IMG/VR virus record: IMGVR_UViG_2663763326_000005
Direction: 5' to 3' (one strand)
Source of the DNA: a virus
Lineage: Duplodnaviria > Heunggongvirae > Uroviricota > Caudoviricetes
Length of the DNA: 45,678 bases
The translations under genes were made by a program, and so were the position numbers. The notes beneath the pieces were generated by a model that was given only the letters and a program-made list of their open reading frames with translations, was not told where the DNA came from and searched no databases. Of this stretch, positions 1,532 through 42,666 are shown one piece after another; positions within the stretch are counted from its first letter, which is position 1; each line of letters begins with the position of its first letter.

Positions 1532-3549
1532 ACTGCCTCCTTGATTTGCCTGTCATTTAATTCTTTAAACCAGACTCTGAAATTTCTGATGTGTCCAAAC
1601 AAATGACGCGTTCCTGCTGCGGTCTGCCCACCAAACCGGTACGATGTTGCTGTAACTCCAAATATTTTACCATTAAGGTTTGTTGTATAATTACCATTGC
1701 ATATTGCATTTACTGATAAATCAGATTTAGCTCTCACACCCACAATGAACCTTTCTCCATCTGAGGCAATTTGTGGCTGAACCATTCCTACGTTGGCGCT
1801 TATCTTTCCTGTTGCAACAAACCCCAGCGATAAATAATTATCATCAATACTGTGCCCTCCAACATCAAATATCCTTGGCGCAACATTGGGCGGTGTACTC
1901 CAGTTCCTGCTTACTTCGCACAATACCGTAAAAGGCCGTGTTGACAGGTTATTCTGCGATGGGATAGTAACTACATCACTTGCGCGTGTTGTTGGCATTG
2001 TAGTTACAATAAATGACGATGCCGTATTGCCCAGTTCAATTTGCGGCGTCGTCATGGTTAATGTTGAGTCATCATAGAATGTCTCATTACTTATTTTATT
2101 TGTCATATAAAAAGCACAGTTAACGGTATCAATGTCCGTATTAGCTGTATAAGTGGCCTCATAGTAGGTCCACTCGCCCTGTTGTTCAGCTTTGGCTGTT
2201 ATAAGGGATGTATTACCGCTTACTGTTGCGATCCGGGTATCCAGATCAAGATAAGAGTCAGCAGAGAAGGTATCTGTTCCACCAATAATAACTGAAACTC
2301 TTAACCTGCATCGTGCTTTAGCGCCTTTAACCCGGCACGAAAAAGTGAAACATTCACCACTTGCCAGCGGGAATCTGTCTGCTGCAACCACACCATGCAC
2401 AGTATAGCCACCTGTTGTTCCCACTATACTTTCCGTGGGTGTCACCGTGGCATAATTGAACCCCTGTTTATCAGTGCCAAATGTTTTATTCAGTGCGGAA
2501 TGAACAGTCCATGAGTCTGGTTTATTTGAGTTCCTCAGATAATTTGTCCTCTGTCCTTCAATCAATAAGCCATCGCGCTCAAATCGCGGTTCGTCAACTT
2601 CAGCAAGCTTGAGTTGGCCGGACTTATTAATATACGTTGCTGTTGAAGCACGTTTAAACTTAACAATCTTGTCGCCTGGCATTGTTATTTCATCGTCACC
2701 AATAACTATCTTTTTATAAGATGGCGAAAAACCCGTAATCATATCCAGTGAATCGTTAAACGGTATCCACACATCAGGCAGCGGCGGCACTATATTCGCA
2801 CAGGGCTCTGCAGTCACTTCCGCTGCGGCTTCTGCGCGGTCTGCCGCCTTTTCAGCTCGTGTCGCTGCCGACAGAGCCTCATCCTTTTTCTGCCCGGCCT
2901 TTGTTGCGTCTGCTGCGGCCTCCCGCGCTTTTGTGGTGGCGACTCCGGCATTTTCAGCGGCTGACTCTGCATTACGGCGGGAAGCCTCTTCACTGTCTGC
3001 GGAGGCTTCTTCTGACGCACGGGCATTTGTCTCTGAACGTTCTGCCGCTGTTGCTGCGTTTTGTGCGGCTGTTTTTGAAGAAGCTGCCGCTTTCGCGCTG
3101 TTACCTGCATTCGTCTCTGATGTTTTCGCCGCGTTCCTGGACGATGCCGCTGCTGTTTCTGATTTCTTTGCTGCCGCTGCGCTCTGAGAGGCGGCTTCAG
3201 CGTTGCGTGCCGCCTCTTCCACCATCTTTTCAAAACGATACAGTGCCTCCGGACAAACATCATCTTCTGTTGCAGCGCCCAGAAAATCATTCAATGTCCC
3301 CGGCTTAGAATCCTCATACACGGTGATGGTCCCGGCATGTGAAGGCGGAAAACCTTCAACCAGCAGGGCGACGCTGTACTGGCCATACTCAACATCCATG
3401 CTGTAACGTCCGGCTTCATCCGGATTTTCTGAGGCCACCGTGTTCACCACAACTGTGGTGCTGTTACGTTTTGCTTTGAGCTGAATGGTGCAGTTCTGTA
3501 TCGGTTTTCCTGCACCGTCTTTCAGCACACCTGAAATCTGTACTGCCAT
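1528..3549 (-). CDS. side tail fiber protein (Stf-like), about 673 aa
   Basis: N-terminus MAVQISGVLKDGAGKPIQNCTIQLKAKRNSTTVVVNTVASENPDEAGRYSMDVEYGQYSV matches the conserved N-terminal domain of lambdoid side tail fibers as I recall them, followed by an Ala/Ser/Thr-rich repetitive shaft. ATG at 3549 is preceded by GGAG; the ORF-track start at 3555 is a GTG. Confidence 0.75.
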   Translation of the reverse strand: MAVQISGVLKDGAGKPIQNCTIQLKAKRNSTTVVVNTVASENPDEAGRYSMDVEYGQYSVALLVEGFPPSHAGTITVYEDSKPGTLNDFLGAATEDDVCPEALYRFEKMVEEAARNAEAASQSAAAAKKSETAAASSRNAAKTSETNAGNSAKAAASSKTAAQNAATAAERSETNARASEEASADSEEASRRNAESAAENAGVATTKAREAAADATKAGQKKDEALSAATRAEKAADRAEAAAEVTAEPCANIVPPLPDVWIPFNDSLDMITGFSPSYKKIVIGDDEITMPGDKIVKFKRASTATYINKSGQLKLAEVDEPRFERDGLLIEGQRTNYLRNSNKPDSWTVHSALNKTFGTDKQGFNYATVTPTESIVGTTGGYTVHGVVAADRFPLASGECFTFSCRVKGAKARCRLRVSVIIGGTDTFSADSYLDLDTRIATVSGNTSLITAKAEQQGEWTYYEATYTANTDIDTVNCAFYMTNKISNETFYDDSTLTMTTPQIELGNTASSFIVTTMPTTRASDVVTIPSQNNLSTRPFTVLCEVSRNWSTPPNVAPRIFDVGGHSIDDNYLSLGFVATGKISANVGMVQPQIASDGERFIVGVRAKSDLSVNAICNGNYTTNLNGKIFGVTATSYRFGGQTAAGTRHLFGHIRNFRVWFKELNDRQIKEAV
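2810..3250 (-). repeat. low-complexity Ala-rich degenerate repeat region inside the tail-fibre gene
   Basis: Protein segment AARNAEAASQSAAAAKKSETAAASSRNAAKTSETNAGNSAKAAASSKTAAQNAATAAERSETNARASEEAS. It creates spurious long ORFs in other frames (2814..3290, 2859..3308, 2933..3187). Confidence 0.5.
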
Positions 3550-24130: not shown

Positions 24131-24424
24131 ATGAAAAAAATGTTGTTTTCTGCCGCTCTGGCAATGCTTATTACAGGATGTGCTCAACAGACGTTTACTG
24201 TTGGAAACAAACCTACAGCAGTAACACCAAAGGAAACCATCACCCATCATTTCTTCGTTTCGGGAATTGGGCAGAAGAAAACTGTCGATGCAGCAAAAAT
24301 TTGTGGTGGTGCAGAAAATGTTGTTAAAACAGAAACCCAGCAAACATTCGTAAATGGATTGCTCGGTTTTATTACTTTAGGCATTTATACTCCGCTGGAA
24401 GCGCGTGTGTATTGCTCACAATAA
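24131..24424 (+). CDS. bor: Bor lipoprotein (serum-resistance protein, Iss homolog)
   Basis: MKKMLFSAALAMLITGCAQQTFTVGNKPTAVTPKETITHHFFVSGIGQKKTVDAAKICGGAENVVKTETQQTFVNGLLGFITLGIYTPLEARVYCSQ matches lambda Bor as I recall it; ATG preceded by AGGATAATAAG. Confidence 0.85.
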   Translation: MKKMLFSAALAMLITGCAQQTFTVGNKPTAVTPKETITHHFFVSGIGQKKTVDAAKICGGAENVVKTETQQTFVNGLLGFITLGIYTPLEARVYCSQ

Positions 24425-28541: not shown

Positions 28542-29573
28542 ATGAAAATTAACAAGATATTATCATCTGCAACACTATTGTATGGTATGTCAATGGCCAT
28601 GTCGGTCGGGAGTTGTGCAACACCTGTCCAGACTAATCTTCCTGGTTACACCCCGGGTGCAGATATCATTAGTGTTTCACCGACCAGAAACCAGGTCGAT
28701 CTCATTGGTGATGTTGTTTATTCCCAGATAAAAGGAACTCGTTCTGTCAGACAGCTTCACATGTCAGTTCTTGTCCCGCGAACAAATGATTTAAAACCAG
28801 CCATTATTTATTATCCCGGCGGCGGATTCATGTCTTCTGAACATGACAAATTTATTGAAATGAGAATGGCTCTGGCAGAAGCTGGTTTTGTTGTGGCCGC
28901 TGTAGAATACAGAACAATTCCTGATACATTTCCAGCACCAGTTGAGGATGGAAAAGCTGCAATACGTTACCTGAGAGAGCATGCCAGCAATTATGGGATT
29001 GATCCTCAAAGAATCGGAGTTCTGGGTGACTCTGCCGGTGGATGGCTTGCCCAGATGATGGGAACTACAAATGGTGACAAAACCTTTGATAAAGGTGACT
29101 TTCTTCAGCAATCCTCAGATGTTCAGGCAGTTGCCACACTTTATGGGATTTCTGACTTGTTGAATATTGGCGAGGGGTTCCCTGAATCAGTGCAGGAGGT
29201 TCATCGCTCTCCTGCCGTAACCGAAGCCTTAATGATCAATGGCCCTGCATTCAGAAATTTTGCGGGAGCCCCCATCACAGCGTCAAAAGAAAAAGCGCTA
29301 AACGCCAGTCCAATCGGACATATGAAAGGAGTAAAACCCCCATTTCTTATTATGCATGGTAGCAAAGACACTCTGGTTTCACCTGAGCAAAGCGCCAAAC
29401 TATTCAGGATGTTGAAGAAGAACGGTGATAACGCTGAGTACGTGCTGGTAGAAGGGGCCGAGCATGGCGATAAGACATGGTATCAGCCAATTATTATAAA
29501 CAGAGTCGTTGAGTGGTTTACTAAAAACCTGGGAGCGCCTATAAAAACAGCTCCCCAACAACAAAACCCGTAA
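28542..29573 (+). CDS. secreted alpha/beta-hydrolase (esterase/lipase-like), 3-prime end clipped by IS insertion
   Basis: Signal-peptide-like N-terminus MKINKILSSATLLYGMSMAMSVGSCA; oxyanion-hole-like YYPGGGF; nucleophile-elbow-like GDSAGG; later H/D candidates (HGSKDT, AEHGD). The stop TAA (29571-29573) lies inside the IS66 left end. Confidence 0.7.
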   Translation: MKINKILSSATLLYGMSMAMSVGSCATPVQTNLPGYTPGADIISVSPTRNQVDLIGDVVYSQIKGTRSVRQLHMSVLVPRTNDLKPAIIYYPGGGFMSSEHDKFIEMRMALAEAGFVVAAVEYRTIPDTFPAPVEDGKAAIRYLREHASNYGIDPQRIGVLGDSAGGWLAQMMGTTNGDKTFDKGDFLQQSSDVQAVATLYGISDLLNIGEGFPESVQEVHRSPAVTEALMINGPAFRNFAGAPITASKEKALNASPIGHMKGVKPPFLIMHGSKDTLVSPEQSAKLFRMLKKNGDNAEYVLVEGAEHGDKTWYQPIIINRVVEWFTKNLGAPIKTAPQQQNP

Positions 29574-29599
29574 GCGTCAACGGAGCACCGTATTGACGC

Positions 29600-31213
29600 T
29601 TATTTATTGGTGAGTACTACGTTCCATGGCAGGAGTTCGTCAACTCGGTTGGAAGGCCATTCCGGCAGTACGCTCAGGATATGGCGCAGATACGCTTCCG
29701 GATCGATACCGTTCAGACGGCAGGTGCCGATCAGCCCGTACAACAGTGCTCCACGCTCGCCGCCGTGATCGCTGCCAAAGAACATAAAGTTTTTCTTTCC
29801 GAGACAGACTGCACGAAGCGCTCTTTCCGCAGCATTATTATCCGCCTCCGCCAGACCGTCATCACTGTAATAACAGAGGGCATCCCACTGATTCAGTACA
29901 TAGCTGAACGCTTCGCCCAGTCTGGATTTTTTCGACAGCGTACCATTCTTCTCCACCATCCATTCATGCAGCGACGTCAGTAACACTTTGCTTCGCTGCT
30001 GCCTGACGGCAAGACGCTCTGACTCCGGTAATCCCCGTATTTCATCCTCGATGGCGTACAGTTCACTGATTCGCTTCAGGGCTTCTTCTGCCGTCGCACT
30101 TTTGCTGCTGATGTATACATCGTGGATTTTTCGCCGGGCATGGGCCCAGCACGCAACTTCTGTCAGTGCACCACCTTCACGTTCTGCACTGAACAACCTG
30201 TCGTAACCTGTGAACGCATCCGCCTGCAGGATACCCCGGAAGGGGCGGAGGTGTTGCTCCGGGTGTTTCCCCTGCCGGTTCGGCGAGTACGCGAACCAGA
30301 CCGCTGGAGGAGATGACGAACCCACATTGCGATCATCCCGGACATACGTCCAGATACGCCCTGTTTTCGCCTTTTTCTGACCCGGTGCCAGTACCTTTAC
30401 CGGTGTGTCATCAGTGTGAACCTTGCGGGTGTTCATTACATAACGGTACAGGGCATCATTCACCGGTGTCATTAACTGGCAGCACGCGTCAACCCAGTTG
30501 GAGAGTAAGGCCCGGCTCAGTTCGACACCCTGGCGGGCAAAGATTTCACTCTGACGATACAGTGGCAGATGTTCGCAGTATTTTCCCGTTAACACGCGGG
30601 CAAGTAATCCGGGGCCCGCGATACCACGCTCTATCGGGCGGGACGGCGCCGGTGCTTCAACAATACAGTCACATTTTGTACAGGCTTTTTTTACCCGTTC
30701 TGTGCGGATCACTTTCAGGGCACTGCTCACCAGTTCCAGCTGTTCAGCGCTGACTTCCCCCAGATAATCCAGCTCACCGCCACACTCCGGGCAACAGCTT
30801 TCTTCTGGCTCCAGGCGGTGTATTTCACGGGGAAGGTGTGCCGGTAACGGACGACGATGGCGCGACTGTCGCAACTGGCGGGGAACCTGAGGATCGTCTT
30901 CCCGCCCACTGTAACGATCGCTGTCCTGTTCACGTTGTTTCAGCAGAGCCTCAGCCAGTTCAACTTCACGACGCAGTTTTTCAGAACGGGTACCGAACAG
31001 CATCCGGCGCAGTTTTTCTATCTGAGCCCGCAGATGTTCTATTTCCCGTTCATCTTCTTCGATCTTTTCTTCGGCACGTGTCAGTGCAGAGCGCAGGAAG
31101 GCTTCCGTCTCTTCAACCAGACTCAGTTGCTGGTCTTTCTGACGGAGGGCTTCAGCCTGCTCAGAGAGCAACCTTTCCAGCTCTGCGATGCGAATGAGGT
31201 ATTTCTGACTCAT
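29600..31213 (-). CDS. IS66-family transposase (TnpC/Orf3)
   Basis: 537-aa ORF with N-terminal coiled-coil/leucine-zipper-like region, Cys cluster (CPECGGEL, CTKCDC) and DDE-type core typical of IS66 transposases. Confidence 0.85.
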   Translation of the reverse strand: MSQKYLIRIAELERLLSEQAEALRQKDQQLSLVEETEAFLRSALTRAEEKIEEDEREIEHLRAQIEKLRRMLFGTRSEKLRREVELAEALLKQREQDSDRYSGREDDPQVPRQLRQSRHRRPLPAHLPREIHRLEPEESCCPECGGELDYLGEVSAEQLELVSSALKVIRTERVKKACTKCDCIVEAPAPSRPIERGIAGPGLLARVLTGKYCEHLPLYRQSEIFARQGVELSRALLSNWVDACCQLMTPVNDALYRYVMNTRKVHTDDTPVKVLAPGQKKAKTGRIWTYVRDDRNVGSSSPPAVWFAYSPNRQGKHPEQHLRPFRGILQADAFTGYDRLFSAEREGGALTEVACWAHARRKIHDVYISSKSATAEEALKRISELYAIEDEIRGLPESERLAVRQQRSKVLLTSLHEWMVEKNGTLSKKSRLGEAFSYVLNQWDALCYYSDDGLAEADNNAAERALRAVCLGKKNFMFFGSDHGGERGALLYGLIGTCRLNGIDPEAYLRHILSVLPEWPSNRVDELLPWNVVLTNK

Positions 31214-31243
31214 GACCGTTTTTATAATGCGGTCAGGAGTTTT

Positions 31244-31594
31244 TTACAACATTGTCAGTGAGTTACGGCTGGATGTTTTTGGCTGACGCCAGTCCAGCTT
31301 ATCGAGGAGCATTGCCAGTTGCGAGCGGGTAATGGATACCTTGCCGTCACGTACCGCAGGCCAGATAAACTGGCCTTCCTCCAGGCGTTTGGTGAACAGG
31401 CACAGACCATCAGCATCAGCCCAAAGAATTTTGACGGTGTCACCCCGTCGGCCACGGAAGATAAACAGGTGACCGGAGAAGGGATTATCATTCAGCACAT
31501 GTTGTACCTGTTCTCCCAGTCCGTTGAAGGATTTACGCATATCGGTAACGCCGGCAACGAGCCAGATACGGGTACCTGATGGGAGTGAGATCAT
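31244..31594 (-). CDS. IS66-family accessory protein TnpB (Orf2)
   Basis: MISLPSGTRIWLVAGVTDMRKSFNGLGEQVQHVLNDNPFSGHLFIFRGRRGDTVKILWADADGLCLFTKRLEEGQFIWP; typical IS66 Orf2. Confidence 0.85.
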   Translation of the reverse strand: MISLPSGTRIWLVAGVTDMRKSFNGLGEQVQHVLNDNPFSGHLFIFRGRRGDTVKILWADADGLCLFTKRLEEGQFIWPAVRDGKVSITRSQLAMLLDKLDWRQPKTSSRNSLTML

Positions 31595-32016
31595 CTTCCC
31601 CTCCCGGTCAGTTCACGGATCAACACTGTGAGCAGCTCTGGCGATGGATTTTCCAGCGTCATGTTACCGTGACGGAATTCCACCTTGCAGGAACTGGCAC
31701 TGACTCTGGTCTGAGTGGAAGTGGATAAAGACGGCGCAATGGCCGCCACAGGTTCTTTCTGCTCATCCGGCGTTATTTCTACAGGTAATAATTCAACGCC
31801 AGTGTCAGAAGAGGTCGTTACCGGAAGACGCCGCGAAACACGCCCTTCGTTCTGCCAGAGCCTGAGCCATTTGAAAATAACATTATCATTGACGCCATTT
31901 TCACGTGCAATCTGTGCAACACAAGCTCCAGGTTGTGATGCCAGTTCCACCATACGAAGTTTGAATTCATTCGAATAGTTTTTACGAGGTTCTTTTCGCC
32001 AGTCCTGTAATTCCAT
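31591..32016 (-). CDS. IS66-family accessory protein TnpA (Orf1)
   Basis: 141-aa ORF with HTH-like segment (ASQPGACVAQIARENGVNDNVIFKWLRLW); overlaps TnpB start (ATGA). Confidence 0.8.
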   Translation of the reverse strand: MELQDWRKEPRKNYSNEFKLRMVELASQPGACVAQIARENGVNDNVIFKWLRLWQNEGRVSRRLPVTTSSDTGVELLPVEITPDEQKEPVAAIAPSLSTSTQTRVSASSCKVEFRHGNMTLENPSPELLTVLIRELTGRGR

Positions 32017-32130
32017 ACTTAGATGTCCGTCTATATCAGATGGGCGTCTAAGTTACCAATTCTCGTCTGATGGCTACATACGGCGGTCAGTTTACGCTTA
32101 CCAAAACCCAAACGCTAACCTGTAAAAAGA

Positions 32131-32149
32131 GGGAGGGCTAAGCCCTCCC
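32131..32149. terminator. bidirectional intrinsic terminator shared by the hydrolase (pre-insertion) and the adhesin gene
   Basis: GGGAGGGC-TAA-GCCCTCCC. On the minus strand it directly follows the adhesin stop and is followed by TCTTTTTAC; on plus it is followed by CATTCAATTTTG. Confidence 0.75.
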
Positions 32150-32161
32150 CATTCAATTTTG

Positions 32162-35100
32162 TTAACTATCCTTTTCAGGTAGTTTTACAACATAAGTCCT
32201 TATTGTTTTCTCATATGTATTTTTGCTATTCGTTATTTTGGCCTTAATCCAGTGATAACCACTTTCATAGGTGCTGAATTCCGAAGCTGCATTACCTGTC
32301 CAGTGTAACGTTACTGTAGCAGGCTCCATTTTGACCCGTTGAGAGTCTGGACTATCTTCACTACCAGCAGAAAACTCAACCGTACCAGATAATGGGTTTC
32401 CAAAATGATCGACAAATCGAGCATAAATACCTACTGGAGATCCATCGTTTGTCTCATAACCAGGATCTTTTGTTAGAGTCAATACTCCATTTGCGTCATC
32501 AGCGTACAGGGAGAATGATTTCACCGCGCTAACATCACTGCCAAGTTCGTTTAAGGTCGCCGTTAATTTATACGAACCAACCGTTCGACCATGTACGCTT
32601 ACCGTAGCCTGACCGTTCTCATCAGTCGTTACTGTGGTTTTATCAACCACCAACGCACCATATTTAGACGGCCCAGATGTCTTAACATTCAATGCTCGAC
32701 CACTTAATGCTTCGCCTGACTTACTTTTCAACAGTAACGTAAATACCAGATTGTTGGTATCGCTCACTACAGCCGAAGATGCAGATGATGTGATCTCCAA
32801 CACAGCCCCCTTCACATCCGTCACGGCATCAATATTCTGGCTTGCGGTTATGCGTTTCCCATCCAGAACATACTCGGCCTGAATTGTGTACTGGCCTGAT
32901 TTCGATGCAGTGAACTGCGTTGTTGCCTGTCCATGAGCATCCAGTTGCAGATTACTACTGGTCAATGATGCTCCCGTCGATGGTGTAATCGTTAAATCCA
33001 CCTCGCCTGTAAACGCATTGTTATTCGCATCAACCAACTGAATGTTTACTGTTGCGTTTTCACTGCCATCGGCCACAATCTCCTGTTTTGATACACTCAT
33101 ATTCAGTTCTGCAGAAGCAACATCGGGCACAAAAGTTAACTTAACGCTGCCAGATTCCACGCTATGGGAACCGTCAGTCACCCGTGCAGTCACCGTGTAC
33201 TCACCAGCTTTCACCGTTGTAAGCGGAACAGAAACATGCCCTGTTGAATCAGTCACGATATTTGTTGGTACAGATAATCCTTCAGATGAGGTGATGAGCT
33301 GAATCTTTTGCCCATTGACCGACGCATTCGTATTTGTCAGCTGCACATCTAATACCGCTGCATCCTTACCATTAGCAGGAATATTGGAAATTAAACTACT
33401 GCTTTCAGGCGTCAGTGACAGTGAAGCTCCGGTCATATTTGATGCAAAGGTCACTGTTAACTCAGTAGACATCTGAGAACCAGCATGAGCTGTAATCACG
33501 TAAGACCCCGGAGTGGAGCTTATTAACGCAAAAATAGCATTACCATTTTCGTCAGTTGAAACAGCATGTTCACCACCAACTTGAGTTATCCCTGCTGGTA
33601 AAGACAATGTGACAGCATAACCAGGAACAACATTGCCGAAACGGTCCGCAAGGCTTACAGTTACCATATTTCTCTGTTTTCCATCAGCCAATGCATTATT
33701 TTGGCTGGCTTCAAACTGAGAGAATGTAACCTGCTGCCGGTCCTCAATAAAGGTGATTTCTTTCTTAACACCTGAGAAATCATGACTATCAGATTTAACA
33801 CCGATAGTAATCTTACCAGCTCGTTTTGAAGTTACTGTCGCGCTATAGACACCGTCTTTTTCCGTTACAGTCCCAAACTCGACTCCTTCTGCCTGGTTAA
33901 GAGCATAAAAGCTCAGAGTGTTATCACCAGTGATTGCATTTCCTTGTGAATCCTTCACTGCCAGTTGTAGATTGATATTGTAACCAACTACCTGTTCTGC
34001 TGGTGCAGCGGTTAAAACAGCACTGACCTCAGAATCAGGTTCTGTTGTTGCTGTTTGCTTAATACTGAGAGTAAATGTTTTTCCCTGAACTTTTGCAGTT
34101 ACACGTACCGTACCAGCCTGCGAACCAGCAGCCAGAACAGAGCGATATACCCCAGCAGAGATTTCCTCTACCGCGCCTAATGACGGAGCAGTTACCGTTT
34201 CACGCTGTCGAGCACTATTGCTATCTGCTGTAAATTCCACTGACATTTCAATGTCATCAGCCAGTCCGGTTAATGCCTTACCGTTACTATCTTTCAGGCT
34301 TAATACTATCGGATAAGTGGATTGGCTATCAGCAGAGATCGTCGGCGACGAATCTCCATCCAGTGTAAAAGACGAATCAGCTGTCGATACATCACTATCA
34401 GTAATGGCTGCCTGCTTAATATTCAGAGTAAAGGTTTTTCCCTGAACTTTTGCAGTTACACGTACCGTACCAGCCTGCGAACCAGCAGCCAGAACAGAGC
34501 GATATACACCAGCAGAGATTTCCTCTACCGCGCCTAATGACGGAGCAGTTACCGTTTCACGCTGTCGAGCACTATTGCTATCTGCTGTAAATTCCACTGA
34601 CATTTCAATGTCATCAGCCAGTCCGGTTAATGCCTTACCGTTACTATCTTTCAGGCTTAATACTATCGGATAAGTGGATTGGCTATCAGCAGAGATCGTC
34701 GGCGACGAATCTCCATCCAGTGTAAAAGACGAATCAGCTGTCGATACATCACTATCAGTAATGGCTGCCTGCTTAATATTCAGAGTAAAGGTTTTTCCCT
34801 GAACTTTTGCAGTTACACGTACCGTACCAGCCTGCGAACCAGCAGTCAGAACAGAGCGATATACCCCAGCAGAGATTTCCTCTACCGCGCCTAATGACGG
34901 AGCAGTTACCGTTTCACGCTGTCGAGCACTATTGCTATCTGCTGTAAATTCCACTGACATTTCAATGTCATCAGCCAGTCCGGTTAATGCCTTACCGTTA
35001 CTATCTTTCAGGCTTAATACTATCGGATAAGTGGATTGGCTATCAGCAGAGATTGTCGGCGACGAATCTCCATCCAGTGTAAAAGACGAATCAGCCGTCG

Positions 35101-36427
35101 AGACACCACTATCAGTAACGCTAATATTCATCACGGCATAGTTGGAAACGTTGCCTCTGTTATCCTGTACTGTGGCTCCAACATTCCACGAATTTACACC
35201 TTCGCTTTTATAAGCCGGTAAAGTGATCTGCCATGATGTGCCATTTCCACTGATCTTGCCGCCAGCCGCAGTGAATGCACTATCATTCCACTGTACAGAC
35301 TTGATACCACCACTAGCATTGTTGATTGTCAGTGTTACAGGGATGATTGATTCCCCCTCCCCCTGAACAGACTCTGGCAAACTGATTTTCAGTGCATGCT
35401 TCTTCTTGTACTCCAGAACAATGTTGTTATTTCGTTCAACAAAATCATAACGCCGGTTCTGGACTTCTCGCATAACTGCAACATTATCGCTGCTAAGCTG
35501 TTCAGCCAAGGAAACGCCCGGGCGATAATTAAACTCAACACCAAAGGTTGTATCGTGAGTGTTGCTCTGTCCTTGCTTATGCTGTGCAGAAAACTTAATC
35601 AGAGGAACTGGTGTATAAGAAATTCCCCCAGTAACTGCGTAAGGGTTTTCCTGCAGGTTATCGCTTCCAAATAACCCGACATTTTTACCATAATATTTTT
35701 CAAACTGAATAGATGCCCCTAATTGCGGATAAGCAGGTAGCCATCCTTCAGCAGAAAAATCCCAGCCATTTGCAGGTCTTTCCAGATAATCATCAATATC
35801 ACGACTGTTCTTCCAGTCAGATAGACCAAAATAGGTATTTACACCAAGCCTGAAATAATCCCTCCAGTACTCAACCCCAAAACCTGCACGAGAGTGACTA
35901 CGACTTAAATCGTAATCATAGAAAACATTCGCACCCAACATTGCGTTATCAGGAGTGAAATGACGAATCCCCAAACCAATATTGGTCTGATTTCGGTCAT
36001 CAGTACGATGTAGTGATGTCTGACTGAATAACACATAATCCTGAGTATCCAGCCATGGATATAAAAAGTCGAATGATGAATCCTTCAAGGAAAAAGAATC
36101 ATCGACATTAAGCTTGATGCGCGCATTGCCATATTGTTGCAACCAGTCGACGACCTCTTTTGTCGCCTGAGTTGATAAAGTATTTACAGCAAAACTACTT
36201 GCATTATTATTCGCCAGGCTCTGACCTGCACTTGCTGCAAATGAGGCCACTTTATTTGCATGCTCATCGCTGGCATAAATTTGCGTAACATCTTTATTAC
36301 CAGATGATGCAAAACTGTTTGCTGGGATCAAAGAAAGAGAAACTGGAGATAATATCTGGGTAACAATTACCGACCATGTAATCGCGCCAGATGCAGTTTT
36401 TTTTAACTTTTTATTCACAGTGGTCAT
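32162..36427 (-). CDS. inverse autotransporter adhesin (intimin/invasin family), 1421 aa, with Ig-like repeats
   Basis: N-terminal signal/anchor, then a beta-barrel-like region (DFLYPWLDTQDYVLFSQTSLHRTDDRNQTNIGLGIRHF.., GFGVEYWRDYFRLGVNTYF, EGWLPAYPQLGASIQFEKYYG), then a long series of Ig-like passenger repeats including three near-identical 119-aa units. AT-rich upstream region. Confidence 0.8.
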   Translation of the reverse strand: MTTVNKKLKKTASGAITWSVIVTQILSPVSLSLIPANSFASSGNKDVTQIYASDEHANKVASFAASAGQSLANNNASSFAVNTLSTQATKEVVDWLQQYGNARIKLNVDDSFSLKDSSFDFLYPWLDTQDYVLFSQTSLHRTDDRNQTNIGLGIRHFTPDNAMLGANVFYDYDLSRSHSRAGFGVEYWRDYFRLGVNTYFGLSDWKNSRDIDDYLERPANGWDFSAEGWLPAYPQLGASIQFEKYYGKNVGLFGSDNLQENPYAVTGGISYTPVPLIKFSAQHKQGQSNTHDTTFGVEFNYRPGVSLAEQLSSDNVAVMREVQNRRYDFVERNNNIVLEYKKKHALKISLPESVQGEGESIIPVTLTINNASGGIKSVQWNDSAFTAAGGKISGNGTSWQITLPAYKSEGVNSWNVGATVQDNRGNVSNYAVMNISVTDSGVSTADSSFTLDGDSSPTISADSQSTYPIVLSLKDSNGKALTGLADDIEMSVEFTADSNSARQRETVTAPSLGAVEEISAGVYRSVLTAGSQAGTVRVTAKVQGKTFTLNIKQAAITDSDVSTADSSFTLDGDSSPTISADSQSTYPIVLSLKDSNGKALTGLADDIEMSVEFTADSNSARQRETVTAPSLGAVEEISAGVYRSVLAAGSQAGTVRVTAKVQGKTFTLNIKQAAITDSDVSTADSSFTLDGDSSPTISADSQSTYPIVLSLKDSNGKALTGLADDIEMSVEFTADSNSARQRETVTAPSLGAVEEISAGVYRSVLAAGSQAGTVRVTAKVQGKTFTLSIKQTATTEPDSEVSAVLTAAPAEQVVGYNINLQLAVKDSQGNAITGDNTLSFYALNQAEGVEFGTVTEKDGVYSATVTSKRAGKITIGVKSDSHDFSGVKKEITFIEDRQQVTFSQFEASQNNALADGKQRNMVTVSLADRFGNVVPGYAVTLSLPAGITQVGGEHAVSTDENGNAIFALISSTPGSYVITAHAGSQMSTELTVTFASNMTGASLSLTPESSSLISNIPANGKDAAVLDVQLTNTNASVNGQKIQLITSSEGLSVPTNIVTDSTGHVSVPLTTVKAGEYTVTARVTDGSHSVESGSVKLTFVPDVASAELNMSVSKQEIVADGSENATVNIQLVDANNNAFTGEVDLTITPSTGASLTSSNLQLDAHGQATTQFTASKSGQYTIQAEYVLDGKRITASQNIDAVTDVKGAVLEITSSASSAVVSDTNNLVFTLLLKSKSGEALSGRALNVKTSGPSKYGALVVDKTTVTTDENGQATVSVHGRTVGSYKLTATLNELGSDVSAVKSFSLYADDANGVLTLTKDPGYETNDGSPVGIYARFVDHFGNPLSGTVEFSAGSEDSPDSQRVKMEPATVTLHWTGNAASEFSTYESGYHWIKAKITNSKNTYEKTIRTYVVKLPEKDS
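34050..35120. repeat. three near-perfect direct tandem repeats of 357 bp inside the adhesin gene
   Basis: The same string (e.g. gcttaat.. at 34057, 34414, 34771) recurs with a 357-bp period. It encodes DSGVSTADSSFTLDGDSSPTISADSQSTYPIVLSLKDSNGKALTGLADDIEMSVEFTADSNSARQRETVTAPSLGAVEEISAGVYRSVL.. three times and produces identical spurious plus-strand ORFs at 34322, 34679 and 35036. Confidence 0.9.
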
Positions 36428-36676
36428 AGTTCAATCAACGTTATGAATATAATGAAAAAAATAACTGGTATGACAAGAGGCGCGAAATATACAGCTCGTT
36501 ACAAAAAAATCAACTCAAAAATAAAATAAAATCTCTGCATAAACTTTATGGCTAAATGATTTCACAACAATGGAAGAAAAATTTTGTTGCTCACGCAATC
36601 AATCATTTCGGGCGTTACAACTAGTCCTAGATTATATTCGCTAGGTATACTTTATTTTTAAGCTAATACTTTAGCT

Positions 36677-37378
36677 CTATTTCATCGCTCCTTTCAGCCC
36701 GAACTTAGCTTTGATTTCTGCGATCTTCGCCAGAGCCTGTGCACGATTTAGAGGCCTACCGCCCATGACAGGAAGTTGTTTTACTGGTTCAGGTATAGCC
36801 TCACCACGGTTAATTCGCGCGGTCATACAGGCCAGTTCATCGGCAGCCTTGCGCCGTAATTCCGCGTCAGTCAACGCATTGGCCCGCATGTTCTGATACA
36901 GGTTGGTAACCAGCCAGTAGTGCGCGTTTGATTTCCACGGATAAGACTCTGCATCCGGATACAGACCACGCTTCCGGCAATACTCGTAAACCATATCAAC
37001 CAGCTCGCTGACGTTTGGCAGCCCGGCGGTAACGGATGCTTCTTCCCGGCACCATGCAACAAACTGCCCGGGTGATGGCAGAAATGGTCTATTCTGCCGA
37101 CGGGCAACACGCATTCCGTCGCTCACCTGCTCCATCGTGGTGATCCCGTTTTCCCGGAAAGCCAGAACCCACTGGCGGCGGATTTCGTTCAGTTCGTTCT
37201 GGTCACGATTAGCCAGGCTCGCCGGGAAAGTTGCCAGTAACTGGCTGAATACACCGTTGATTATCTGCGCTACCTGCTGTACCTGCGGCTTTTCGTCGTA
37301 CTGTTCCGGCATGTTGTTGGCGATCCGACGCATCTGCTCACGGTCAAAGTTAATCATCTGTGCGGCGATGTTTTTCAT
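36677..37378 (-). CDS. P: replication protein P (DnaB helicase loader)
   Basis: MKNIAAQMINFDREQMRRIANNMPEQYDEKPQVQQVAQIINGVFSQLLATFPASLANRDQNELNEIRRQWVLAFRENGITTMEQV; 233 aa as lambda P. Confidence 0.9.
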   Translation of the reverse strand: MKNIAAQMINFDREQMRRIANNMPEQYDEKPQVQQVAQIINGVFSQLLATFPASLANRDQNELNEIRRQWVLAFRENGITTMEQVSDGMRVARRQNRPFLPSPGQFVAWCREEASVTAGLPNVSELVDMVYEYCRKRGLYPDAESYPWKSNAHYWLVTNLYQNMRANALTDAELRRKAADELACMTARINRGEAIPEPVKQLPVMGGRPLNRAQALAKIAEIKAKFGLKGAMK

Positions 37379-38394
37379 AGATCCACCCCGTAAATCCAGT
37401 CTGTGTTTGTCAGGTCGAGTTTTGGTTTGCTAGCTGTCACGCCTGCCTGTTGCTTGTTACGGTTGATTTCGAGTTGGGTCCACTTGTCGCGGAGTTTGGC
37501 CGGACTTAGCACGTTACCGGACCAGAAGTTGTCCTGGCATGCCCAGCGGAACAGCACGCACATGTCGCGGTGGTTACGTCCGTCACGTTCACGCATCAGG
37601 CGGATATCGTTAGCCCACCCTGCAAAATTCGGTTTTCTGGCTGATGGCGCGATGGTCTTCACCATGTCAAACATCCACTCTGCGGCGGTCAGGTCTTCTG
37701 CTGTCCCCCACTTGCTGCCGCTCTGAATTGCAGCATCCGGTTTCACCACAGGAAGATCGTTTTCTGGTTGGTCAGAGGATTCGCCAGAATTCTCGGACGA
37801 AAAAGGTTTTATATTGTCTTTTGTTAGTTTGTCTTTTGTGTTTACCTGATTCGGGTAAACGCCTTTACCTGATTTGGGTAAACTTTTTTTACCTGATTCA
37901 GGTAAATTTACCTCTTTCAGGTAAACTTTATTTTTCTTACCTGATTCGGGTAATGTTGACCATTCACTGACCACATTATTAATGCCGGTATTCCGCCCGC
38001 TCTGAATAAAAATCCCACGCTTTACCAGAACACTTTTTGCAGCAGAACACTTGTGCGGCAATATCCCGGTTAATTCGGAAAGTTGCTCGTTGCTAACCCA
38101 ATCCAGTTTTTTATTAAAGCCATATGTTTTGCGCATGACAGCCAGAAAGACCAGAAGCTGGTGCTGTGTTAATCCGGCCAGCATCACAGCTTCCAGCAAC
38201 TCATTTGCAATGCGCGTATAACCATCATCGAGATCTGCCACGCGCGGCTCCTTTTGTGCCGCATCCGGCACTGGAAAATTGAATATCTCAGCAGTGTTTG
38301 CCATAATTCCTCCCGCAATGAGTGTGTTACGATTTGCACCTGAAAGTCGGTTCTGTTCCAGCAGACCGGCTTTCGCCATTTCTGAACCTGTCAT
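37375..38394 (-). CDS. O: replication initiator O-like protein (origin-binding)
   Basis: Lambda-O-like N-terminal domain (ADLDDGYTRIANELLEAVMLAGLTQHQLLVFLAVMRKTYGFNK), iterons inside the coding sequence, stop overlaps the P start. Confidence 0.8.
   Translation of the reverse strand: MTGSEMAKAGLLEQNRLSGANRNTLIAGGIMANTAEIFNFPVPDAAQKEPRVADLDDGYTRIANELLEAVMLAGLTQHQLLVFLAVMRKTYGFNKKLDWVSNEQLSELTGILPHKCSAAKSVLVKRGIFIQSGRNTGINNVVSEWSTLPESGKKNKVYLKEVNLPESGKKSLPKSGKGVYPNQVNTKDKLTKDNIKPFSSENSGESSDQPENDLPVVKPDAAIQSGSKWGTAEDLTAAEWMFDMVKTIAPSARKPNFAGWANDIRLMRERDGRNHRDMCVLFRWACQDNFWSGNVLSPAKLRDKWTQLEINRNKQQAGVTASKPKLDLTNTDWIYGVDL
37842..37954. repeat. replication origin iterons (5 x 17-bp TTACC..GGTAA) with adjacent AT-rich tract
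   Basis: TTACCTGATTCGGGTAA (37842), TTACCTGATTTGGGTAA (37865), TTACCTGATTCAGGTAA (37889), TTACCTCTTTCAGGTAA (37908), TTACCTGATTCGGGTAA (37938); AT-rich 37801-37841. Confidence 0.8.
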
Positions 38395-41203: not shown

Positions 41204-41989
41204 ATGAGTACAGCACTCGCAACGCTGGCTGGGAAGCTGGCTGAACGTGTCGGCATGGATTCTGTCGACCCACAGGAACTGATCACCACTCTTCGTCAGA
41301 CGGCATTTAAAGGTGATGCCAGCGATGCGCAGTTCATCGCATTGCTGATCGTCGCCAACCAGTACGGCCTTAATCCGTGGACGAAAGAAATTTACGCCTT
41401 CCCTGATAAGCAGAACGGCATCGTTCCGGTGGTGGGCGTTGATGGCTGGTCCCGCATCATCAATGAAAACCAGCAGTTTGATGGCATGGACTTTGAGCAG
41501 GACAATGAATCATGTACGTGCCGGATTTACCGCAAAGACCGCAATCATCCGATCTGCGTTACCGAATGGATGGATGAATGCCGCCGCGAACCATTCAAAA
41601 CTCGCGAAGGCAGAGAAATCACGGGGCCGTGGCAGTCGCATCCCAAACGGATGTTACGGCATAAAGCCATGATTCAGTGTGCCCGTCTGGCCTTCGGATT
41701 TGCTGGTATCTATGACAAGGATGAAGCCGAGCGCATTGTCGAAAATACTGCATACACTGCGGAACGTCAGCCGGAACGCGACATCACTCCGGTTAACGAT
41801 GAAACCATGCAGGAGATTAACACTCTGCTGATTGCCCTGGACAAAACATGGGATGACGACTTATTGCCGCTCTGTTCCCAGATATTTCGCCGCGACATTC
41901 GCGCATCGTCAGAACTGACACAGGCCGAAGCAGTGAAAGCTCTTGGATTCCTGAAACAGAAAGCCACTGAGCAGAAGGTGGCAGCATGA
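41204..41989 (+). CDS. bet: Bet (Red-beta single-strand annealing protein)
   Basis: [72 protein letters not shown]..; 261 aa. Confidence 0.9.
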
Positions 41990-42666
41990 CACCGGACATT
42001 ATCCTGCAGCGTACCGGGATCGACGTGAGAGCTGTCGAACAGGGGGATGATGCATGGCACAAATTACGGCTCGGCGTCATCACCGCTTCAGAAGTTCACA
42101 ACGTGATAGCAAAGCCCCGCTCAGGAAAGAAGTGGCCTGACATGAAAATGTCCTACTTCCACACCCTGCTGGCTGAGGTTTGCACCGGTGTGGCTCCGGA
42201 AGTTAATGCTAAGGCGCTGGCGTGGGGAAAACAGTACGAGAACGACGCCAGAACCCTGTTTGAATTCACTTCCGGCGTGAATGTTACTGAATCCCCGATC
42301 ATCTATCGCGACGAAAGTATGCGCACCGCCTGCTCTCCCGATGGTTTATGCAGTGACGGCAATGGCCTTGAGCTGAAATGCCCGTTTACCTCCCGGGATT
42401 TCATGAAGTTCCGGCTCGGTGGTTTCGAGGCCATAAAGTCGGCTTACATGGCCCAGGTGCAGTACAGCATGTGGGTGACACGAAAAGATGCCTGGTACTT
42501 TGCCAACTATGACCCACGAATGAAGCGTGAAGGCCTGCATTATGTCGTGGTTGAGCGGGATGAAAAGTACATGGCGAGTTTTGACGAGATGGTGCCGGAG
42601 TTCATCGAAAAAATGGACGAAGCACTGGCTGAAATTGGTTTTGTATTTGGAGAGCAATGGCGATGA
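41986..42666 (+). CDS. exo: Exo (Red-alpha 5-prime to 3-prime exonuclease)
   Basis: [69 protein letters not shown]..; 226 aa. Confidence 0.9.

Follow-up and report, generated by a model that had tools for sequence, protein, structure and literature searches.

We analysed a repeat array in a 45,678-nucleotide stretch of Caudoviricetes DNA (IMG/VR record IMGVR_UViG_2663763326_000005; this whole stretch is called the window here). The array lies in a gene for a predicted adhesin of the inverse autotransporter (IAT, type Ve) family. It is very probably a tandem triplication of an immunoglobulin (Ig)-like stalk domain in a prophage-borne IAT, going back to an old duplication that has since been homogenised and has repeatedly changed in copy number without loss of the reading frame. 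The complete genome of Escherichia coli JJ1887, an extraintestinal pathogenic E. coli (ExPEC) strain of sequence type 131 (ST131) according to PMC9937491, matches the window at 100% identity on both sides of one insertion sequence (IS).

Tandem Repeats Finder reported a single tandem array at 34056-35118 with a period of 357, 3.0 copies, 98% matches and 0% indels (score 2063), and when the gene was compared with itself at a 357-nt offset, the array fell at 34050-35121. In the reading frame it covers 34049-35119 and consists of three head-to-tail 357-bp units of 119 codons each on the minus strand (Table 1). Pairwise comparison of the three copies gave 7, 12 and 7 mismatches over 357 nt (98.0, 96.6 and 98.0% identity). 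Chance would not yield units of 357 nt at 97-98% identity, and the flanks immediately outside the array are unlike the unit (15/60 and 18/60 identities). A sequence-only reading of this DNA had already described three near-identical 357-bp repeats of 119 aa in frame at essentially this place. The description holds, with the reading frame on the minus strand as the sole correction, and the copies did not prove much more divergent than they appear. It had also placed the few substitutions near the ends of the units, which is right for the edges: copy 1 is set apart at unit positions 1, 14, 18, 24 and 66 and copy 3 at six positions, all within 330-357. Two interior differences at unit positions 255 and 274 depart from this description; at position 255 copy 2 carries a private synonymous T. 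A crossover between two unequally aligned copies would generate a hybrid pattern of the kind seen in copy 2.

Each repeat encodes a single Ig-like domain of the stalk, of the invasin-D3/FdeC type. A single 119-aa unit scored 38.8 bits against Pfam Invasin_D3 (cut-off 33; residues 8-110). A search of 1.84 billion representative proteins with the unit gave just 58 relatives with E values of 0.001 or less; those of full length were mostly 24-46% identical, and several were giant multi-domain proteins. A profile of the unit together with 25 distant homologues (a 26-sequence alignment) matched solved Ig-like domains, namely four domains of FdeC (4E9L, E 2e-53) as well as InvD (5LDY), invasin (1CWV, residues 201-295) and InvE (5N40). 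With the same alignment AlphaFold modelled the unit as an eight-strand all-beta domain with a predicted local distance difference test score (pLDDT) of 93.1 and a predicted template-modelling score (pTM) of 0.85. The best PDB matches of this model in Foldseek were InvE, FdeC, InvD and invasin, with template-modelling (TM) scores of 0.63-0.66. The Pfam score, the profile matches and the structural matches agree with the Ig-like domains proposed by the sequence-only reading. A first AlphaFold run, in which the unit was aligned to the protein's own eight paralogous domains only, gave a pLDDT of 56 and was discarded.

Copy number was then compared among related genomes. Of 5426 complete E. coli genomes, 561 (about 10%) match the gene, in 562 records, and the tally was made on 60 rows taken at even steps down the ranking of matching complete E. 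coli records. Three copies (4266 bp) were found in 35 of the 60 rows (about 58%; two of them also with an IS), two copies (3909 or 3912 bp) in 13 and one copy (3552 bp) in nine (one also with an IS), while the gene was truncated in three. All eight 1- and 2-copy alleles that were retrieved are intact open reading frames (ORFs) of 1183 or 1302-1303 aa. Moreover, the protein collection holds several distinct 1540-aa proteins. Three of the loci that encode them carry four units (4623 bp), and a 4-copy allele is present in one complete RefSeq chromosome, that of AVS0193. No allele with five or more copies occurred among the protein clusters and top-ranked complete genomes listed. Across alleles the length of the protein ranges from 1183 to 1540 aa by gain or loss of whole domains, and the intact alleles of 3552, 3909, 4266 and 4623 bp with one to four copies confirm the suspicion that the passenger varies in length.

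Two records stand somewhat apart in this comparison. The 4-copy gene of AVS0193 (L015, NZ_CP124455.1) matches an intact allele of 1540 codons at 100.0% over its whole length of 4623 nt and in one piece. In RefSeq, however, it appears as a partial pseudogene and, separately, an 'invasin domain 3-containing protein', which looks like an annotation artefact at an unusual length. In a 1423-aa protein of E. coli UMEA 3489-1 (P0005) the second repeat breaks after '..APSLGA', followed by a piece of the first passenger domain (D00), 'GNGTSWQITLPAYKSEG...NISVNNSG', and then by another repeat. This would be either a different duplication spanning D00 and a repeat or a mis-assembly of the draft.

Assemblies do break at the array, since partial proteins on long contigs stop inside it. 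Partial proteins of 447-451, 512, 533-534 and 633-640 aa end 13-204 residues into the array, and several of them lie on contigs of 250-360 kb. Only these partial proteins of 447-640 aa that end inside the array were counted as evidence of breaks. Fragments of 72-129 aa on contigs of 220-390 bp were considered as collapsed single-repeat contigs and rejected, as their sequences are N-terminal or barrel fragments. In the general assembly collection, the background of the window is represented by 906 contigs with the exact 3-copy protein and at least 1000 with the exact 2-copy protein, whereas in complete genomes the 2-copy form accounted for about one sampled row versus 35 for the 3-copy form. 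There is likewise a relative surplus of the shorter form on the L003/L004 background in the general collection, with 189 versus 312 contigs. The 2-copy excess would fit a 3-to-2 collapse in short-read drafts, and draft assemblies appear to under-count copies, in a contrast between collections that differ in their strain sets and mix sequencing technologies, with the 2-copy count as a lower bound. The warning that such repeats trouble assemblies is supported by the breaks and indirectly by the excess of the shorter form.

These two excesses of shorter forms would also favour the view that genomes differ in copy number mostly through assembly collapse and not biology, which we nevertheless regard as unlikely. 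All four copy numbers were found in complete chromosomes, one-copy alleles occur on three distinct backgrounds, and collapse cannot generate 4-copy alleles. Furthermore, the ratio of 1-copy to 2-copy alleles on the L006/L007 background was about 7:2 in the complete-genome sample and at least 1000 to 356 contigs overall. Because the proportions agree between both collections, the 1-copy allele on this background looks real.

Identical backgrounds with different copy numbers point to recent change of the array. The allele of the window and JJ1887 (L001, three copies) and L002 (two copies) showed 0 differences over 3195 non-repeat nt, and the same was found for L003 (two copies) and L004 (one copy) as well as for L006 (two copies) and L007 (one copy). 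Three 4-copy loci on the background of the window had 0-1 differences outside the array. The synonymous marker at position 255 in their two middle units read G/G, T/T and T/G, which implies separate expansions or conversions. In the one-copy alleles the 5' edge of the first copy is joined exactly to the 3' edge of the last copy of the matching 2-copy allele, a structure as expected from an unequal crossover that deleted a unit.

The edges and the interior of the unit behave differently between alleles. The first and the last copy show 10 differences within 52 edge nt in all five multi-copy alleles compared, and orthologous edges differ between alleles at 0-5 positions. In the 305-nt interior, the first and the last copy of one allele differ at 0-3 nt, with 11 in the most divergent allele (L009), while between alleles orthologous copies differ at 1-3 nt in the closest pair, the window and L003, and at 6-21 nt in the other nine of the ten pairs. 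As the edge junction is common to all multi-copy alleles compared, it points to one ancestral duplication. Homogenisation through conversion or unequal exchange, in turn, is supported by allele-specific substitutions found in both copies. This pattern indicates an old duplication, then concerted evolution, accompanied by recent in-frame unequal recombination. The sequence-only reading had offered recent expansion or concerted evolution, and the data favour both: the former through identical backgrounds with different copy number and the varied interior markers of the 4-copy loci, the latter through edges conserved across alleles and interiors homogenised within each.

According to the mechanism we propose, the old duplication would have left two copies whose outer edges stayed distinct, and gene conversion or unequal crossing-over would keep the interiors nearly identical within each allele. 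Adjacent copies share uninterrupted identical tracts of 188-254 nt and the unit is a multiple of three, which is why misaligned homologous recombination or replication slippage would add or remove whole domains in frame. Intact alleles with one, two, three and four copies would in this way have arisen repeatedly and recently. It is very unlikely that the unit was instead duplicated independently in each lineage and that the similarity of the copies reflects youth without any concerted evolution. The nearly identical interiors within an allele (0-3 differences in four of five alleles) would suit this explanation, but the junction is common to five of five multi-copy alleles, even to those that have diverged by 4-6% in the interior. 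Moreover, duplication of a 1-copy allele could not recreate the 10 edge differences, and the 11 interior differences in L009 fit an older, partly homogenised pair.

The interior of the unit also stands out in its divergence between alleles, which per site was about 1-6.6% in the 305-nt interior versus 0.5-3.8% in the 1308-nt 5' part of the gene, and higher in the interior for every allele pair. Between L003 and L006 it reached 4.3% in the repeat interior versus 0.5% in the 5' part. This higher divergence could reflect imported sequence or diversifying selection. An apparent 640 differences in the 3' part of the gene in L008 were an artefact of an ungapped comparison across a 3-nt indel and were ignored.

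Tandem repeats of such size are known to be mis-assembled (PMC6868369), and draft contigs break inside this array. Nevertheless, it is highly improbable that the three copies in the window are an artefact of over-expansion or collapse and not the state of the isolate. The gene has the same length and sequence as the 3-copy allele in JJ1887, EC958, JJ1886 and about 58% of the matching complete records (35/60), and distinct markers order the three copies unambiguously. The copy number of the window is probably correct, given its identity to complete ST131 genomes.

Switching by way of repeats is a frequent feature of pathogen surface proteins. A contingency (phase-variation) switch between on and off states of the adhesin has next to no probability here, as the unit of 357 nt equals 3 x 119, all 1-4-copy alleles examined are intact ORFs and a change in copy number thus alters the length and not the reading frame.

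The five-domain rod of invasin is about 18 nm long, which scales to about 4 nm per domain. By analogy with the rod-shaped passengers of invasin and intimin, each copy would lengthen the rod-like stalk by roughly 4 nm, and the copy number would alter the reach of the distal domains from the outer membrane and possibly the antigenicity. A further idea is that the 3-copy allele, which predominates in complete ST131 genomes, is functionally tuned and not neutral, setting how far the adhesin reaches relative to the layer of O25b O-antigen and capsule, and that the Red system of the prophage raises the rate of copy change on induction. We consider this speculative and rather unlikely; if true, it would make the protein a phage-carried, length-adjustable adhesin. 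The recurrent disruption of the gene by IS elements in some ST131 isolates argues against strong selection.

Several points weigh against the history of duplication, homogenisation and recurrent copy change outlined above, or limit how far it reaches. The recombination pathway (RecA, prophage Red or slippage) is not distinguishable from the sequence, and it is often ambiguous whether an individual copy change was a gain or a loss. Assembly errors could also lie behind some of the copy numbers read from public 'complete' genomes. The step from copy number to stalk length, adhesion and antigenicity is taken by analogy. Finally, the gene may be dispensable and its polymorphism neutral, because IS elements interrupt it in some ST131 genomes.

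The gene that carries the array is annotated in RefSeq as 'inverse autotransporter beta domain-containing protein', and its features are listed in Table 1. The barrel scored 338.2 bits against PF11924 (IAT_beta; cut-off 22.3) with profile positions 3-279 of 279 covered, and residues 97-341 matched the barrels of invasin (4E1T, E 1e-73) and intimin (4E1S, E 7e-63). The repeat array directly follows the D00-like membrane-proximal domain. Pfam found Big_1 in five stretches and Invasin_D3 in eight, and residues 910-1155 matched invasin 1CWV. A self-profile, which is circular by construction after the first round and was used for domain boundaries only, resolved ten Ig-like domains after the barrel, namely the D00-like domain, the three repeats and six distal ones. 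Neither a C-type lectin domain nor a LysM domain was detected in the protein by Pfam. By visual inspection only, the N-terminus, where a Sec signal peptide would be expected, shows a basic KKLKK, a hydrophobic run and an ANSFA/SS motif. The terminator-like hairpin has a 9-bp stem with seven GC pairs and a T-rich tail (consensus scan only), and the GC content of the 250-bp upstream spacer with the promoter-like sites is 0.38.

Table 1. Features of the predicted adhesin gene and its repeat array; positions refer to the window and residues to the 1421-aa protein.
Feature	Window positions	Strand	Details
Inverse autotransporter (type Ve) predicted adhesin gene	32162-36427	minus	Single ORF, 1421 aa; Pfam IAT_beta and Invasin_D3/Big_1 array
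Outer-membrane beta-barrel translocation domain	35426-36259	minus	Residues 57-334; Pfam PF11924
First passenger domain, D00-like	35105-35404	minus	Residues 342-441; match to intimin D00-D0 6TQD, E 1e-9
Repeat copy 1	34763-35119	minus	Residues 437-555; 5' edge with 'first copy' markers
Repeat copy 2	34406-34762	minus	Residues 556-674; hybrid, 5' edge copy 3-like, 3' edge copy 1-like
Repeat copy 3	34049-34405	minus	Residues 675-793; 3' edge with 'last copy' markers
Six further mutually divergent Ig-like domains, distal passenger	32165-34045	minus	About residues 800-1407; Pfam and self-profile envelopes
Terminator-like GC-rich hairpin	32130-32150	minus	12 nt past the stop codon; between adhesin gene and convergent hydrolase gene
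Two promoter-like sites	36449-36513	minus	In the upstream 250-bp AT-rich spacer; consensus matches only, 9/12

The intimin-like beta-barrel domain PF11924 defines the inverse autotransporter family (Goh et al. 2019, PMC6714894). With this domain and an inverted topology, in which the barrel is N-terminal (57-334) and the Ig-like passenger C-terminal (342-1407), the gene product belongs to this family. The adhesin named by the sequence-only reading is in line with the 338-bit IAT_beta barrel and the Big_1/Invasin_D3 array that follows it. Within the family, the whole-protein scores reached no curated NCBIfam cut-off for any named inverse autotransporter: they were 388 versus 2400 for IatC (N-terminal), 329 versus 1400 for intimin, 318 versus 999 for SinH, 312 versus 1125 for Ilp, 305 versus 750 for YrIlm (N-terminal), 284 versus 710 for Inv (Cronobacter) and 270 versus 508 for YchO/YchP. 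This score comparison covers the models among the NCBIfam matches, which include none for FdeC or YeeJ. None of the seven E. coli IAT groups of Goh et al. 2019 fits by size or locus, and the six IATs of strain SMS-3-5 in that study are unlike the prophage protein in both. SinH was rejected as a name because SinH is IatB, a different protein. The prophage protein is therefore best described as an unnamed member of the family. Its counterpart in EC958 carries the locus tag EC958_1349 (gene at 1266117-1270382) and was called 'prophage-associated invasin-like protein' in PMC8541385; apart from this locus tag, we found no mention of the gene in the searchable literature.

A variable array of Ig repeats in an inverse autotransporter is already known in kind, with YrIlm of Yersinia ruckeri as its nearest precedent. 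As far as the work of Wrobel et al. 2018 is relayed in PMC6868369 and PMC10174560, YrIlm contains tandem identical or near-identical Ig-like repeats of about 300 bp, their number varies between strains and short-read assemblies under-count them (PMC6868369). Like the prophage protein, it is thus described as an inverse autotransporter with tandem Ig-like domains that are identical or nearly identical at the DNA level and variable in copy number among strains; near-identical head-to-tail repeats of one Ig-like domain each and a strain-variable copy number were likewise found here. In contrast, these accounts give YrIlm more than 20 identical repeats and usually a C-type lectin end, whereas the prophage protein has one to four repeats of 357 bp and no lectin domain was detected in it. 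The prophage protein is also phage-borne in E. coli, and its score for the N-terminal YrIlm model lies well below the cut-off, as given above.

FdeC (EaeH) is likewise an E. coli inverse autotransporter of similar size (1415 versus 1421 aa), and its Ig-like domains (4E9L) were the best solved match to the unit profile, with a Foldseek TM score of 0.66 at 28% identity. However, FdeC lies at another, chromosomal locus, and the overall amino-acid homology of the two proteins was reported as about 19% (PMC8541385). We found no description of near-identical tandem repeats in FdeC. Invasin of Y. pseudotuberculosis (1CWV, 4E1T) and intimin (4E1S, 6TQD) share with the prophage protein an N-terminal 12-stranded barrel followed by an Ig-like rod; the unit resembles invasin D3 and the D00-like domain matches intimin 6TQD. 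They differ from it in that the prophage protein lacks a C-terminal C-type lectin-like domain or LysM by Pfam and has ten Ig-like domains in its passenger instead of four or five. In UpaH of uropathogenic E. coli, according to its citation by Goh et al., the number of long in-frame repeats changes by recombination, which alters the length of the protein and causes mis-assembly. UpaH and the streptococcal proteins considered below belong to other families with other folds and secretion routes and are functional analogies only. Streptococcal alpha C/Rib proteins have long in-frame tandem repeats that vary in number by recombination, with like effects on protein length and assembly.

In JJ1887 the adhesin gene belongs to a lambdoid prophage integrated next to icd. 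The replication gene P lies on one side of it, and on the other side a convergent alpha/beta-hydrolase gene is followed by the nin region. The G+C content of the gene is 0.44 versus 0.51 for the window, and the layout would fit an independently transcribed cargo gene of the prophage. Among sequenced phage genomes in the phage collection there was no relevant match to the gene, only two distant ones with 29-31% identity. The Red recombination genes of the prophage are also present, with exo and bet at about 41204-42666 and gam upstream.

In some other complete ST131 genomes, among them EC65 (L013) and 22872 (L014), an ISEc23 (near nt 3141 of the gene) or an ISEc52 (near nt 2619) interrupts the adhesin gene. 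Both insertions lie downstream of the repeats and leave annotated pseudogene halves, and the same applies to the matches H1-H8 and H58. The window itself contains an IS66-family element of 2532 bp at 29570-32101 that is missing from the otherwise 100% identical JJ1887. It comprises tnpA, tnpB and a transposase, and ORFs of the same size are annotated as ISEc23 in strain EC65. The element is flanked by an 8-bp target-site duplication (29562-29569 and 32102-32109) and lies 53 nt downstream of the adhesin stop codon. On its other side it is inserted 16 nt before the end of the alpha/beta-hydrolase coding sequence, so that the hydrolase ORF has 343 aa and not 347.

The practical weight of these results exceeds the conceptual one, as the gene occurs in the most intensively sequenced multidrug-resistant clone of E. 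coli. As a repeat polymorphism the array is of an ordinary kind, and its consequences lie mainly in assembly and variant calling: it breaks or shortens drafts and can yield spurious indel or frameshift calls in reference-guided comparisons. For sister clinical isolates assembled against EC958, Table 2 of PMC8541385 lists three 'putative mutations' (insertion/truncation, frameshift and substitution) in EC958_1349. Because the gene holds the repeat array, these calls, whose positions are absent from the paper, could be mapping or assembly artefacts. Any use of the protein as a marker, for typing or as a vaccine component must allow for its variation in length from 1183 to 1540 aa. With its conserved edges and homogenised interiors, the array also offers a clean case from nature of concerted evolution confined to one gene.

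Two minor observations concern the remainder of the prophage. The gene iss for the serum-survival lipoprotein lies beside the lysis genes at about 24131-24424 (6510-6803 in L001), so the prophage carries at least two virulence-associated cargo genes. In addition, short tandem repeats of 19-23 bp at 37841-37934 (consensus TTTACCTGATTCGGGTAAAC..) lie inside a Phage_rep_O gene on the minus strand (37375-38394) and look like the iterons of a lambdoid origin.

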